Below, in pieces: positions 16,565 through 19,704 of a DNA stretch of 20,000 nt. Both the position numbers and the translations under genes were made by a program. The notes beneath the pieces were generated by a model, which saw only the letters and a program-made list of their open reading frames with translations, was not told where the DNA came from and searched no databases. The stretch is taken from IMG/VR virus record IMGVR_UViG_3300025844_000016, one strand, 5' to 3'. Every line of letters begins with the position of its first letter. Within the stretch, counting starts at the first letter, position 1. Origin of the DNA: an uncultured virus (IMG/VR IMGVR_UViG_3300025844_000016). Taxonomy: Duplodnaviria; Heunggongvirae; Uroviricota; Caudoviricetes.

Positions 16565-17191
16565 ATGGCTATCAAGCGTGCCAAGACCTTCGATGAGAAG
16601 CAGTTCTATCGGCTGCTTACTCACATCGAAACCCACAGCGTCATGCCCAAGCGTGACAAGCTGATTGTGGCTCTGTCATTCAAGGCCGGGCTGCGTGTCG
16701 GTGAGATCGCCAAGATCAAGATCAGCGCGATGACCGATGTCGATGGCGCTATCGCCAAGCAGATCAACATCTTTTCCGATGTTGGTAAGAAGCAGCGGAT
16801 GCGTGACATCCCGATGAACCCCCTGATCAGAACCTGTCTGGAAGAGTTCCGCGAGGAATATCCCAACGCCAAGTTCGTTGCGATTTCTTCGCAGCCCTTC
16901 CGTTGGATTCTGGCACGGGGCCGGCCGATCCCGAAAGATGCTGAGTTCAAGCAGATGTCCCCGGAAGCCTTGAAGACTTACTATCTCAAGATGCTCAAGT
17001 CGTTCGGGTTCGAAGGCGCTTCCACTCACTCGGGTCGCCGAACTTTTGGAACCCAGCTTGCCCGAACAGCTAACGCTCACCACTGCTCACTTCGTGACGT
17101 TCAGCGGTTGATGGGTCACGCTCGGATGGAAACTACCGAAGCGTATATCGAACTCACCGAAGATGCATCTGCGATGGTGATGGCACTCTAA
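16565..17191 (+). CDS. Tyrosine recombinase, catalytic domain only (208 aa)
   Basis: GLRVGE (R), GKK (K), HSGR (H-x-x-R), MGH, TEAY (Y); SD AAGGAG. Confidence 0.92.
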   Translation: MAIKRAKTFDEKQFYRLLTHIETHSVMPKRDKLIVALSFKAGLRVGEIAKIKISAMTDVDGAIAKQINIFSDVGKKQRMRDIPMNPLIRTCLEEFREEYPNAKFVAISSQPFRWILARGRPIPKDAEFKQMSPEALKTYYLKMLKSFGFEGASTHSGRRTFGTQLARTANAHHCSLRDVQRLMGHARMETTEAYIELTEDASAMVMAL

Positions 17192-17203
17192 CAAACTTTT
17201 TTC

Positions 17204-17240
17204 TTGACCAACTAGGTGGAGCGTCATAGAGAACGAATCA
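17204..17240 (+). promoter_or_regulatory. Sigma70-type promoter with CGAATCA near the start site
   Basis: TTGACC-N17-TAGAGA, then CGAATCA at 17234-17240. Confidence 0.6.
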
Positions 17241-17265
17241 CCGACAACAAATGGAGGATACAGAC

Positions 17266-17832
17266 ATGACGAATGCAGTGAAAACCCCCGCCCGTGGGCG
17301 CAAGAAGATCGATCAGGCAGCCCTCGACGCTGCGAACGAAGCCTCCAAGGCACTGAGCGAGAAGCAGCAGCAGGCCGCTTCGAAGCCCCGTGCCAAGGCG
17401 GCTCCCAAGACCCGCGCCAAGGCCGCTACTGGTCTGGGCAAGCAGCGTCAGGCAGATGCCGCTGCTCCGGTGATGGAAAAGCAGGGGGCTTCGGCTTCCG
17501 GTAAGTCCGCTCCGGTCGAAGAGCTTCGCGGCGGCACCAAGCAGGTGCTGATCACCGAAGCTGTGATGGTCGGACGTTCCGGCCGGCCGGCTGGTGTCGA
17601 GGAATACCCGTTCGGCGAGCTTCCGCCCGCCTACAAGGATGAGAACGGACAGATCGTTGGTCTCTCGTTCTTCATCCCGATGACTGACAAGGCCGAGGGC
17701 AAGCTTTCTGCTGCCCGCAAGCGCCACAAGTGCCTGTTCTGGAGCCGCACGGTTTACGAGCAGGTCAATGGCAAGGGCCCCAAGGTCGAAGGTCTTCGCA
17801 TCTGGCGTGGCACGCCTGACATCAAGGCGTAA
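17266..17832 (+). CDS. Basic Lys/Ala-rich putative DNA-binding protein
   Basis: GGAGG SD before the ATG at 17266; histone-H1-like KPRAKAAPKTRAKAA region; C-terminal domain YPFGEL...SFFIP...GLRIWR. Confidence 0.75.
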   Translation: MTNAVKTPARGRKKIDQAALDAANEASKALSEKQQQAASKPRAKAAPKTRAKAATGLGKQRQADAAAPVMEKQGASASGKSAPVEELRGGTKQVLITEAVMVGRSGRPAGVEEYPFGELPPAYKDENGQIVGLSFFIPMTDKAEGKLSAARKRHKCLFWSRTVYEQVNGKGPKVEGLRIWRGTPDIKA

Positions 17833-17844
17833 CCACGCAAACGG

Positions 17845-17877
17845 AAGGGCCGTCACGAAGGTGGCGGCCCTTTCCTT
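17845..17877 (+). terminator. Rho-independent terminator
   Basis: AAGGGCCGTCAC-gaag-GTGGCGGCCCTT stem followed by a pyrimidine run. Confidence 0.75.
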
Positions 17878-17919
17878 ATAGTGAGAGCCAAATAATTTTC
17901 ACTGACTGTCATTTTTATG

Positions 17920-17948
17920 TTGACACTGACAGTGAGAATCGGTAATTC
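17920..17948 (+). promoter_or_regulatory. Promoter for the first ncRNA
   Basis: TTGACA-N17 (contains AGAATCG)-TAATTC, with no credible ORF downstream. Confidence 0.7.
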
Positions 17949-17955
17949 GGCCCTC

Positions 17956-18186
17956 CAACGTCTGCTCCATGGTTTTCCGAGGGGCAGGAACAGCCGGAGT
18001 CACTCTGACCCCGCAGCGTCGAACTTGGGCGCGAGCGAGTCATTGGCCGGTCTGGTGCGGATACGTTTCGTGTCAAGGGCGGGTAGAACGGGGGAAGCCC
18101 CGAGATCACCGGCCCCCAGCACGATAGGCCAAGCCAGCGCAAGTGGTCCTGTCACGCGGTAAGTCATGGAATATCTCGACGAGTTG
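17956..18186 (+). ncRNA. Unassigned structured RNA A (about 230 nt)
   Basis: Own promoter; nested pairings CAACGTC/GACGAGTTG, TCCATGG/TCATGGA, GGCAGGA/TCCTGTC, TTGGCC/GGCCAA, CGGGG-gaag-CCCCG, GATACG-ttt-CGTGTC. Confidence 0.6.
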
Positions 18187-18199
18187 ATTTGATTAAGTG

Positions 18200-18228
18200 T
18201 TGACACGAATCGAATCACCTAATAGAGA
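18200..18228 (+). promoter_or_regulatory. Promoter for the GOLLD-like RNA and downstream ncRNA cluster
   Basis: TTGACA-cgaatcgaatcacctaa-TAGAGA, with two GANTC sites in the spacer. Confidence 0.7.
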
Positions 18229-18231
18229 GAC

Positions 18232-18793
18232 GGAATGCCAGCCTGATGGCGATAGTGTGAGGCAACTCACATAAAGGGGGTAAGGCCACTTAACCCCGCC
18301 GGTCCCGATCGGTCAATTCAGGCAAGCGCAGTCAGGTCCGCGAGGACCGCTTCACCGGGATAACCTTGCAAACTTAGCATAGTTGGTAATGCAAACGACT
18401 CTTAATCGTGAGATCGGTGGTTCAAACCCACCAGTCTGCTCCAAACGCAAAGATTGCCACGACTGCATGTGAAAGACGCCTAATGCCATAGAGGCTTGCC
18501 TCAATGTGGCCCGACCTGATCTCGCAAGGTGATGGTTGGTTGGTGGAAGAAGTTTCGTTGGGCCCGCAAGCCCTTAATGGCTGGAGACAGTCAGCGGAAT
18601 CGAAACTGCCGAATATCATGCAGTGTCACCGCAAATGCCAGCGGTCCCGTGAGAACCGGGAGAAAAAGGCGGCGTTGGTCTGGAACTGAGCTACCGCAAG
18701 GGGCTTGGTGGATAAGTCGGGAAGGTGACTCGCAAGGTCACTATAATCTGACGAATGACGGATCGTAGCGGGTGTAATCTCAACCTGCTTCCA
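18232..18793 (+). ncRNA. GOLLD-like RNA (compact, about 560 nt) with embedded tRNA
   Basis: Many CGCAAG/GCAA-capped hairpins; ordered motifs TGAAAG...CTA, GTGGATAAG, ATAAT and a terminal hairpin with loop GTAATCTCA match my recollection of the GOLLD 3' domain; embedded tRNA and phage tRNA-cluster context are typical of GOLLD. Not checked with a covariance model. Confidence 0.7.
18368..18443 (+). tRNA. tRNA-Lys(CTT) with encoded CCA
   Basis: Acceptor GCAAACT/AGTCTGC (one A-C mismatch), D arm GCAT-agttggta-ATGC, anticodon arm ACGA-ctCTTaa-TCGT, T arm GGTGG-ttcaaac-CCACC, then T-CCA; 76 nt. Confidence 0.9.
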
Positions 18794-18797
18794 TTTT

Positions 18798-18980
18798 TCG
18801 ATTTCTATGTTGGCCCAGCAAAGAAGGTTAGCTACCTTCCCCTCGGTTCCCGCAGGTCAGGTCGATCCCAGCAATTCTCGAATGCAGACGGATCGTCGAA
18901 GCATCAGGTCCAGTAATTCGAGCCGTGGCTTGATCGCATTGGGCGTCGCTGCAAACCCGCTGGGTCATCATAGAAAACGA
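18798..18980 (+). ncRNA. Unassigned structured RNA B (about 180 nt)
   Basis: Terminal helix TCG-a-TTTCTATG-t-TGGCCCAGC / GCTGGGTCA-t-CATAGAAA-a-CGA; inner helices GAAGG/CCTTC, GGTCAGGTC/GGCTTGATC, CTCGAAT/ATTCGAG. Confidence 0.65.
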
Positions 18981-18982
18981 TA

Positions 18983-19151
18983 GCCCGGAGTAACCGCCAC
19001 AACAGATTGGTAGCTTCCATGGAAAGTTGTCGGGAGTTGGTCAGGGATGTTTAGGTGAAGTCGCCTTCGAAAGCGGCGCGGTGGATCGGAAAGCAGGGTT
19101 GATCTCCTGTGGAACGATAGGCCAGTGGTTCGACTCCACCTCCGGGCTCCA
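18983..19151 (+). ncRNA. tRNA-like RNA C (169 nt): acceptor stem, T arm and CCA around a large non-tRNA body
   Basis: GCCCGGAG/CTCCGGGC 8-bp stem, GTGG-TTCGACT-CCAC T arm, T discriminator plus CCA; no canonical D or anticodon arm. Confidence 0.7.
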
Positions 19152-19158
19152 TAACGCT

Positions 19159-19298
19159 TCACTCGTAATGAAGCTTCTCAGCGGAATGTCGGCGGTCACG
19201 CGACCTAACCGGCGATCCGTGGGTTTACACTGAACCGGCGGAAGGAAGGGCGTAGTGAACCCGGCCGAGCTTCGAGAGGCCCCATTACGAGTGATCCA
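19159..19298 (+). ncRNA. Unassigned structured RNA D (about 140 nt)
   Basis: Perfect 12-bp TCACTCGTAATG/CATTACGAGTGA followed by T-CCA; inner GCTTCTC/GAGAGGC and GGGTTTAC/GTGAACCC. Confidence 0.65.
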
Positions 19299-19427
19299 TT
19301 TGTGATCGGGCCGGCGGCACCAGATAGGTTTAAGGCGAGTGGACTCCCGTCGAACGGAGACGACAGACCCGGATAAAAACCGTGTATGGGTGTTGCTAGT
19401 GCTTTGGCCGCCGGCCTGATCACAGAT
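19298..19427 (+). ncRNA. Unassigned structured RNA E (about 130 nt)
   Basis: 21-bp terminal helix ATTTGTGATCGGGCCGGCGGC / GCCGCCGGCCTGATCACAGAT, with two G-U pairs. Confidence 0.65.
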
Positions 19428-19430
19428 GTT

Positions 19431-19516
19431 TCACTTGCAACAAGGGAGGCGGGCACCGTCGGGAAACCGGGACGGATGATTCGCGAACTTTAGTCCGCTC
19501 TCCTTGTTGCGAGTGA
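19431..19516 (+). ncRNA. Unassigned structured RNA F (86 nt)
   Basis: About 24-bp terminal helix TCACTTGCAACAAGGGAGGCGGGC / GTCCGCTCTCCTTGTTGCGAGTGA (G-U pairs, one mismatch); apical CCGTC-GG-gaaa-CC-gg-GACGG. Confidence 0.65.
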
Positions 19517-19530
19517 TGTTCGAGTTTTTC

Positions 19531-19691
19531 TCACTTCCCTGTCCGCAGGGGTGACCCGGTAGGTAACCAAGGGTGGTTCGAATATCCTCGCATTTAGTTC
19601 CTGTGGGTTCCATGGAGCCCCTTGAATCCTCAAGCAGGTGACAGAGAGTTAAAGGAGCCGCCCTGCTCCGAAACCAGATAAAATGGGTGAG
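19531..19691 (+). ncRNA. Possible structured RNA G (multi-hairpin; boundaries uncertain)
   Basis: Hairpins CCCTG-tccg-CAGGG, GGGTG-gttcgaa-TATCC, GGGTTC-catg-GAGCCC, CTTGA-atcc-TCAAG, GGAGC-cgccct-GCTCC; closing CTCGCATTT/AAATGGGTGAG. Confidence 0.5.
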
Positions 19692-19704
19692 TGCAATTTT
19701 TTAG

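Follow-up and report, generated by a model that had tools for sequence, protein, structure and literature searches.

A compact GOLLD RNA gene with a linker tRNA-Lys and a shortened 5' domain at the head of a phage tRNA island

GOLLD RNAs have been known since 2009 and structures of the cages that they form were published in 2025. The env-38 GOLLD (833 nt) is a 14-mer cage capped by its 5' domains, with rings and half-shell contacts made by the 3' regions and with the linker directed inward (PMC12286853). The GOLLD of S. agalactiae (700 nt) is a 12-mer, and PMC12990946, which reviews it, reports that the assembly is capped by the 5' domain and held by it to one stoichiometry, and thereby to homogeneity, and that the 3' domain by itself (P14-P27, 375 nt) assembles mainly into decamers with minor octamers and dodecamers. 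The presence of a tRNA or pseudo-tRNA inside GOLLD has already been published (PMC12286853, PMC12990946 and PMC6582537), and for a Mycobacterium GOLLD the internal pseudo-tRNA is reported as undetected as a separate RNA (PMC6582537). The family properties on which a preliminary description of the present locus had relied (tRNA islands close by, a linker tRNA and a better conserved 3' region) have likewise all been published (PMC12286853, PMC12990946).

The locus analysed here lies in a window of 20,000 nucleotides corresponding to bases 7317-27316 of a 39,169-b viral contig with a CheckV completeness of 23%. The ORFs of the window have their matches among phage protein families of replication and nucleotide metabolism (DNA polymerase A, SNF2 helicase, dCMP deaminase, RecE-like exonuclease, integrase), and the ORF list of the window holds no convincing ORF on the + strand from about 17900 onward. 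A covariance-model search of the window detected a match to the GOLLD family RF02032 at 18340-18786 (+) covering the full model (1-416) with 122.1 bits (E 4.4e-33), and a search of the whole record returned the same score with an E-value of 1.6e-35. This significant match falls over the region 18445-18793, which had been named beforehand as the place to look for a refutation of the proposed GOLLD-like RNA, and the GOLLD reading is thus favoured. Model positions from about 116 to 416 are aligned with high posterior probability, including two CGCAAG-capped hairpins and the GUAAUCUCA end loop, while the model hairpin 1-62 is matched in the window by a makeshift 6-bp stem only. Because the score falls below the curated gathering cut-off of 150 bits, Rfam's own rule would leave the window GOLLD unannotated: at the Rfam gathering thresholds tRNAs alone are reported in the window, and GOLLD appears with E-value reporting. 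In the same window, ROOL gave no covariance-model match at E-values up to 10.

Homology thus shows that the RNA gene at 18230-18789 (+) belongs to the GOLLD family. It measures about 560 nt, or about 485 nt minus the tRNA, in keeping with the expected size of under 500 nt, and its GC content is 53%. ARAGORN and the RF02032 alignment agree in placing a tRNA between the 5' and 3' parts, as had been proposed. Rfam is without a model for the GOLLD 5' domain, and that part was delimited by alignment to relatives. In single-sequence folding energy the RNA does no better than shuffled sequences (z -1.5, 5' part; z -1.0, 3' part; a further value was -1.2), a measure that is uninformative for this GC-rich RNA. 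The features of the locus are collected in Table 1.

Table 1. Features of the GOLLD locus, in window coordinates.
Feature	Position	Strand	Basis or remark
Promoter-like site TTGACA-17 nt-TAGAGA	18200..18228	+	Repeated phage motif
5'-domain remnant	18230..18364	+	Alignment to five full-length relatives; consensus and single-sequence folds
tRNA-Lys(CUU)	18368..18443	+	ARAGORN; Rfam tRNA 60.3 bits
Linker 3' flank AACGCAAAGAUUGCCACG	18444..18461	+	Nearly invariant in the clade
Conserved GOLLD 3' domain	18462..18766	+	Aligned to model ~137-397
UGAGA, candidate kissing partner of the last loop	18650..18654	+	In a 7-nt hairpin loop
Terminal hairpin AGCGGGT-GTAATCTCA-ACCTGCT	18767..18789	+	Model 398-416; 7-bp stem; conserved GUAAUCUCA loop
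Start of another tRNA	19942		ARAGORN, Rfam

Relatives of this gene were collected from IMG/VR and a metagenome collection with a 19-letter word of the 3' domain and were completed with two GenBank phages, giving 10 distinct sequences. Five of them, L015 (178.3 bits), L006 (172.1 bits), L012 (163.8 bits), L007 (157.6 bits) and L011 (156.7 bits), pass the RF02032 cut-off and are 76-93% identical in DNA to the window; L014 scores 149.2 bits, the two GenBank phages are full length and under the cut-off (vB_EliS-L02 141.9 bits, XM05 120.4 bits), L013 (51.1 bits) breaks off at model position 191, where its contig ends, and was counted as full length for the 5' side only, and the window itself represents the short form. 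The nearest long-form DNA relative is L011, at 85-93% identity. The 3' domain of L015 aligns poorly (40/88 pairs) and was retained in the counts of 3' consensus, tertiary pairing and tRNA shape. Four further contig records, L005, L008, L009 and L016 (173,752-b contig), show 100% identity with the record of the window along 2.6-3.0 kb; with the window they are one identical strain and no independent lineages. One more record, L010, contained the 19-letter word and was taken as a chance hit: it gave no GOLLD match at E ≤0.001 and no BLAST match and was dropped from the counts.

The closest cultured phages are the Erythrobacter phages XM05 (PV416404) and vB_EliS-L02 (OL955261), each of about 150 kb. 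Over 18200-18785 they are respectively 82.5% and 78.4% identical to the window and have the upstream integrase gene in common with it, and in both GenBank records no annotation lies under the GOLLD match. With the sequence beyond the window included, the record has a total of 27 tRNAs, together with a permuted alpha-type tmRNA that scores 75.9 bits and passes its cut-off; the GOLLD gene heads this island, with the tRNAs and the tmRNA downstream. Covariance-model searches of the 39-kb and 96.8-kb fragments of the strain found no second GOLLD copy. The genome that carries the gene is probably that of a roughly 175-kb phage of the type of the Erythrobacter phages.

The 3' domain of the window GOLLD is intact. 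A consensus fold of nine clade sequences contains 88 pairs, 38 of which are changed on both sides, and recovers the Rfam helices; the window retains 87 of these 88 pairs, as compared to 84-88 in the seven well-aligned relatives. A long-range stem (18462-18469 with 18617-18624) encloses hairpins and is followed further 3' by a hairpin with a UGAGAAC loop, a three-way region and two CGCAAG-capped hairpins. CGCAAG occurs four times on the + strand within 18523-18736, and 21 times on both strands of the whole window against 12.0 expected. The CGCAAG-capped hairpins previously noted in the 3' part were found again, as was the AGCGGGT...ACCTGCT hairpin at its end. The stem of this terminal hairpin varies among relatives, and it is followed by TCCATTTTT, with UCCAUUUUU at 18790-18798. 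A terminator scan did not call it, the loop limit of the scan being 8 and the loop here 9.

A pseudoknot had been suggested between TGAGA and the TCTCA of this last loop. The complementarity exists, and as UGAGA and UCUCA (18778-18782) each occupy a hairpin loop in the consensus fold, a kissing contact between them is plausible in its geometry. Among the nine sequences, 43/45 cells pair and no pair changes on both sides, neither side varying usefully, and a 5-nt complement within 350 nt is close to chance expectation. A second candidate pairing of the same loop, between AGAUUGC (18452-18458) and GUAAUCU, is conserved with likewise no pair changed on both sides.

On the opposite side of the tRNA, the structured 5' sequence of about 135 nt that had been described is present and is conserved in all five aligned full-length relatives. 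A consensus fold of five long 5' domains comprises 139 pairs, 51 with changes on both sides. Within this fold the window remnant keeps a closed multi-branch, in which the stem GCCUGA/UCAGGC surrounds three hairpins, and a GGUCC-GCGA-GGACC hairpin. Columns 12-97 and 109-122 of the corresponding alignment (A3) are retained in the window, and columns 100-108 and 123-127 have lost to the deletion the strands with which they pair; the remnant therefore ends up with two orphan strands, which are the 5' strands of longer-range helices.

The promoter that the preliminary description had placed upstream of the gene, at 18200, went uncalled in a generic sigma-70 scan, but its TTGACA belongs to a strongly over-represented motif: TTGACA-N17-TA occurs 7 times in the window versus 0.28 expected, a count reached in none of 200 shuffles, and 9 times versus 0.24 expected in the downstream 15 kb (L002). 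Every copy is oriented like the adjacent ORFs or RNA genes, several carry GAATCG in the spacer, and L011, L007 and XM05 have conserved the copy at 18200. We take TTGACA-N17-TA as a putative phage promoter family; taking the 18200 site as one of its members, transcription is predicted to start near 18231. One RNA contig, from run X18, covers 18199-18359 and begins upstream of this predicted start; it could reflect read-through from the copy of the motif at 17920, or DNA.

The difference in length between the window GOLLD and its relatives can be traced to a single site. The junction lies between 18364 and 18365 (site 18359..18365), where relatives carry 295-301 nt. Alignment with the five full-length relatives is good over 18230-18364 and again from 18365 onward, and the window is without columns 177-480 of this alignment (A2), the distance from the shared start to the tRNA being 135 nt in the window as compared to 417-444 nt in the five relatives. 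The much reduced 5' domain that had been proposed is thereby confirmed; in the family at large this domain, of about 400 nt, is variable. The missing part corresponds to most of the 5' domain together with the hairpin preceding the linker (model 1-62), which aligns well in XM05 and vB_EliS-L02 and is probably P13 of the published numbering. Of the helices, this model hairpin is missing and two in the 5' domain are without their partner strands. The deleted part, hairpin 1-62 included, is kept in nine of the 10 distinct clade sequences, that is in all but the window. Of the GC-rich compact variant that had been envisaged, the compactness holds; it reflects a recent deletion and is not an old trait of a GC-rich lineage, GC-rich relatives being full length.

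An oil-sands metatranscriptome (X19) contains the long form in an almost identical background. Its 809-nt contig runs from 18247 to 18359, continues with 299 letters and resumes over 18365-18761, and its flanks, including the same tRNA, match the window at 509/510 letters. With such near-identical flanks, the deletion in the window strain is a very recent, strain-level event, and the window GOLLD is compact because about 300 nt were recently lost. All the sampled words were also present in 17 DNA runs, each of them flagged as a possible source of the record, and these runs were therefore not counted as independent. We consider it probable that the locus is a GOLLD gene heading a tRNA island that recently lost about 300 nt, that has kept its 3' domain intact and that would still self-assemble, this last point being deduced from the engineered S. 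agalactiae 3' domain, a construct from another species.

The main alternative is that the deletion broke the GOLLD, the short RNA being transcribed without assembling and persisting as a neutral or mildly harmful passenger. The near-identical long form speaks for it, leaving no time for selection to act, as do the retention of the deleted part in the rest of the clade, the removal of a conserved hairpin with two helix strands left orphaned, and the fact that the five DNA records (the window's own and its four identical companions) amount to one strain. Since the deletion is so recent, a signal of selection on the short form is not to be expected. On the other hand, the strain was recovered in five contig records, one of 173,752 b, and so was abundant enough for repeated assembly, its 3' domain is untouched, and a lone 3' domain assembles in vitro (PMC12990946). 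We regard a broken gene as a real possibility, but as less likely than not.

The tRNA of the linker bears on a second alternative. The complete tRNA-Lys reported in the preliminary description was recovered by both ARAGORN and Rfam, and it sits in the unpaired linker of the RF02032 model. It folds into a canonical cloverleaf with a 7-bp acceptor stem containing one A.C mismatch, a discriminator U and an encoded CCA, and its tertiary-fold positions all look canonical. A tRNA-derived module occupies the linker in 10/10 clade sequences. Across these relatives, compensatory change keeps the D, anticodon and T stems; 16 of the 21 cloverleaf pairs change on both sides, and 89.5% of the cloverleaf cells are paired versus 71.9% in shuffles, none of which (0/500) reached this value, slid controls remaining at or below 47%. 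By contrast, 74% of cells pair in the acceptor stem. The anticodons called by ARAGORN vary among relatives (CUU, UAU, UCU, UUC), L013 has lost 19 nt inside the module, and the window copy is the only one of the 10 to combine a complete acceptor stem with a discriminator base and an encoded CCA. It has no duplicate among the other 26 tRNAs of the island, the best match being 57/76 letters. The island also holds a second tRNA-Lys(CUU) and a tRNA-Lys(UUU), which make the linker copy redundant for decoding; both have discriminator A, a lysine identity element, versus U in the linker copy. The conserved fold together with the drifting anticodon and acceptor end suggests that GOLLD retains the tRNA shape as one of its own elements and not as a needed decoder.

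RNA contigs document this tRNA in its GOLLD context. Six metatranscriptome runs hold part of the stretch, of which four, from 4 studies, were examined. In all four, RNA contigs cover at least 18390-18760 with at least 99% identity and bridge the tRNA 3' end (18443/18444) with at least 54 letters on the left; the X19 contig, which is of the long form, spans the tRNA 5' end as well. There are thus molecules that carry the tRNA and the 3' domain joined together, with the reservation that RNA libraries can hold DNA. A contig from X20 extends from 18353 through the short junction, with 12 letters on the left, which is under the 31-letter rule for bridging, and could be DNA. In three runs the contigs stop at 18760/18761, and in the fourth they reach 18770, in each case short of the last hairpin, which hints at most weakly at a nearby 3' end. 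Within 17000-19700, the four runs gave no RNA-contig cover at 17000-17454, 17728-17909, 18820-18910 and 19184-19700.

These observations can be set against the possibility that the transcript is a precursor, from which RNase P and 3' trimming would free a working tRNA-Lys(CUU), the GOLLD parts becoming two RNAs. The window tRNA would suit this role, being alone among the 10 in its acceptor stem (7 bp), discriminator and encoded CCA, with canonical tertiary positions. Against it stand the joining of tRNA and 3' domain across 18443/18444 in 4/4 runs (contigs giving no proportions of joined versus processed RNA, so that partial processing may occur), the redundancy of the linker copy in the island, its discriminator U where both island tRNA-Lys have A, and the mycobacterial precedent of an internal pseudo-tRNA reported as undetected as a separate RNA (PMC6582537). 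We find a tRNA precursor unlikely. The related earlier claim that excision of the tRNA would cut the RNA into two pieces is sound in its logic, but the contigs of all four runs carry the tRNA joined to the 3' domain. Finally, it is extremely improbable that the true DNA is full length and that assemblers skipped the 300 nt: the evidence does consist of contigs rather than raw DNA reads, and the record may itself derive from the DNA runs, but the identical junction recurs in the four other contig records of the strain (L005, L008, L009 and L016), its two flanks have no more than about 5 nt in common, too short a repeat for an assembly to collapse on, full-length relatives were assembled normally, and the X20 RNA contig crosses the junction, albeit with the 12 letters on one side.

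Under the reading that we prefer, of a recently shortened GOLLD with an intact 3' domain, the RNA would probably be transcribed from its own phage promoter at 18200 as a molecule of about 560 nt comprising the 135-nt 5' remnant, the linker tRNA-Lys(CUU) and the complete 3' domain ending in the GUAAUCUCA hairpin. By analogy with the S. agalactiae construct, the 3' domain alone might still multimerise and would then yield an uncapped, possibly heterogeneous ring-like multimer with the tRNA tethered on the inner face of the assembly. One may go further and imagine the short form as a working cap-less GOLLD, a ring open at both ends in which the tethered tRNA-Lys is exposed to processing enzymes or host tRNA-targeting factors rather than enclosed in a cage; we hold this to be a long shot. 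If it were true, GOLLD would be a tRNA store of which the window strain represents a natural 'open' state, and the near-identical pair of long and short strains would make GOLLD function directly testable.

The family itself, the linker tRNA, the tRNA-island setting and the self-assembly of the 3' domain are already known. What is new is a natural GOLLD that has neither cap domain nor pre-linker hairpin and of which a near-identical long form exists, as well as the GOLLD genes that lie unannotated in the published genomes of two Erythrobacter phages. In the literature searched, we found no paper joining GOLLD and Erythrobacter and no naturally cap-less GOLLD, which may still be in print. The locus offers a natural matched pair, with one strain devoid of the cap-forming half and a near-identical strain and cultured relatives that have the cap, and a phage without the GOLLD cap domain still reaches an abundance sufficient for repeated assembly. 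The short form is therefore a natural test of what the front half of GOLLD is for, and it supplies a concrete construct with which the purpose of the cap and of the enclosed tRNA can be addressed.

Compared with described systems, the window GOLLD resembles those of env-38 and S. agalactiae in its homologous 3' domain, its GUAAUCUCA end loop and the presence of a linker between the 5' and 3' parts, and it conforms to the family in lying beside a phage tRNA island with a tRNA in the linker. Unlike the two former RNAs, it lacks the pre-linker hairpin and has a 5' domain of 135 nt, a total length of about 560 nt, a GC content of 53% and a score under the Rfam cut-off. ROOL is also a large phage-linked RNA found near tRNA islands, forming cages with a disordered inner linker (PMC12286853), but it is unrelated in sequence and fold. 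Mycobacterial GOLLD (PMC6582537; Morgado 2020 as cited in PMC12990946) similarly contains a tRNA-shaped element and lies, like the window gene, within a horizontally moved tRNA cluster; it comes from another host phylum and its element is called a pseudo-tRNA, whereas that of the window looks canonical. The GOLLD genes of XM05 and vB_EliS-L02 share with the window the order integrase, small gene, GOLLD, tRNAs and a tRNA or tRNA-like element in the linker, but keep the ~300 nt and have linker tRNAs with imperfect acceptor ends and no canonical CCA. The engineered S. agalactiae 3' domain (PDB 9LMF; PMC12990946) is likewise cap-less and can be set beside the 346 nt that follow the tRNA in the window (18444-18789). 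That construct is man-made and derives from a distant host, whereas the RNA of the window is natural and carries in addition a 135-nt remnant of the 5' domain and a tRNA.

Immediately upstream of the window's GOLLD RNA gene lies a separate non-coding element, which is equipped with a TTGACA-N17-TA site of its own at position 17920. Its predicted fold contains a long closing stem (approximately 17968-18000 with 18150-18186). When five sequences were compared, both-sided changes were found in 16 of the 87 predicted pairs. Sequence alignment indicated that the element is kept in Erythrobacter phage XM05 and in the GOLLD relatives L011, L007 and L013; no alignment was obtained for it with phage vB_EliS-L02 or relative L006. 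A contig from metatranscriptome run X18 (RNA libraries can also hold DNA) spans 17987-18131. Searches of the element against Rfam with E-values up to 10 returned no family, save a malK-II match of chance level at the 5' edge.

The TTGACA-N17-TA site belongs to a family of phage promoter-like motifs occurring more than 25-fold above chance, several copies of which carry GAATCG within the spacer. Throughout the window and L002, the 15 kb of the same viral record located downstream, these motifs are always oriented like the adjoining ORFs or RNA genes. Two ORFs overlap on opposite strands further upstream of GOLLD; since the size and place of the plus-strand ORF agree with those of the annotated gene XM05_1, this ORF is probably the real gene of the pair.

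Coordinates of the features in the window, in L002 and in two published phages
Feature	Sequence	Position	Strand	Remarks
Separate non-coding element	window	17920-18190		immediately 5' of GOLLD
tRNA look-alike, oversized (~173 nt)	window	18984-19156		paired ends and T-arm
ORF, 193 aa	window	17251-17832	+	
ORF overlapping the 193-aa ORF	window	17224-17856	-	
TTGACA-N17-TA	window	324, 4307, 15647	-	
TTGACA-N17-TA	window	16502, 17920, 18200, 19705	+	
TTGACA-N17-TA	L002			nine further copies
Permuted, alpha-proteobacterial-type tmRNA gene	L002	9519-9950		beyond window; alpha_tmRNA 75.9 bits, tmRNA_permuted 70.2 bits
Full-length GOLLD gene, Erythrobacter phage XM05	PV416404	3666-2782		embedded tRNA
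Full-length GOLLD gene, Erythrobacter phage vB_EliS-L02	OL955261	69187-70012		embedded tRNA

In the oversized tRNA look-alike, the 5' end GCCCGGA pairs with the 3' strand TCCGGGC, which is preceded by a T-arm (GGTGG-TTCGACT-CCACC) and followed by T and CCA. It folds closed as the paired ends predict, with an energy no better than that of shuffled sequences. Neither ARAGORN nor Rfam made a call on it, and a contig from metatranscriptome run X22 spans 18987-19145.

The tmRNA gene, whose two scores both exceed the cut-off, stands at the far end of the island of 27 tRNAs, and its alpha type points to an alphaproteobacterial phage host. Weak matches to YrlA, a Y RNA-like family (cut-off 69 bits), were also observed within the tRNA islands of L002 (3645-3748, 37.5 bits) and L006 (2788-2890, 45.7 bits).

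Neither GenBank record of the two Erythrobacter phages carries an annotation at its GOLLD locus. Comparison of the linker tRNA across L003, L004, L006, L007 and L011-L015 revealed that the anticodon of this GOLLD-internal module, as called by ARAGORN, differs among relatives (Lys-CUU, Ile-UAU, Arg-UCU, Glu-UUC), that most copies are devoid of a clean acceptor end and CCA, and that the L013 copy has a 19-nt internal deletion. In the alignment of the window GOLLD with five relatives, the middle of the 5' domain (columns ~150-300) exists in two versions, one common to L011 and the distant L006, the other found in L007, which is close to L011, and in XM05 and vB_EliS-L02. This disagreement with overall relatedness suggests that modules have been exchanged within the GOLLD 5' domain.
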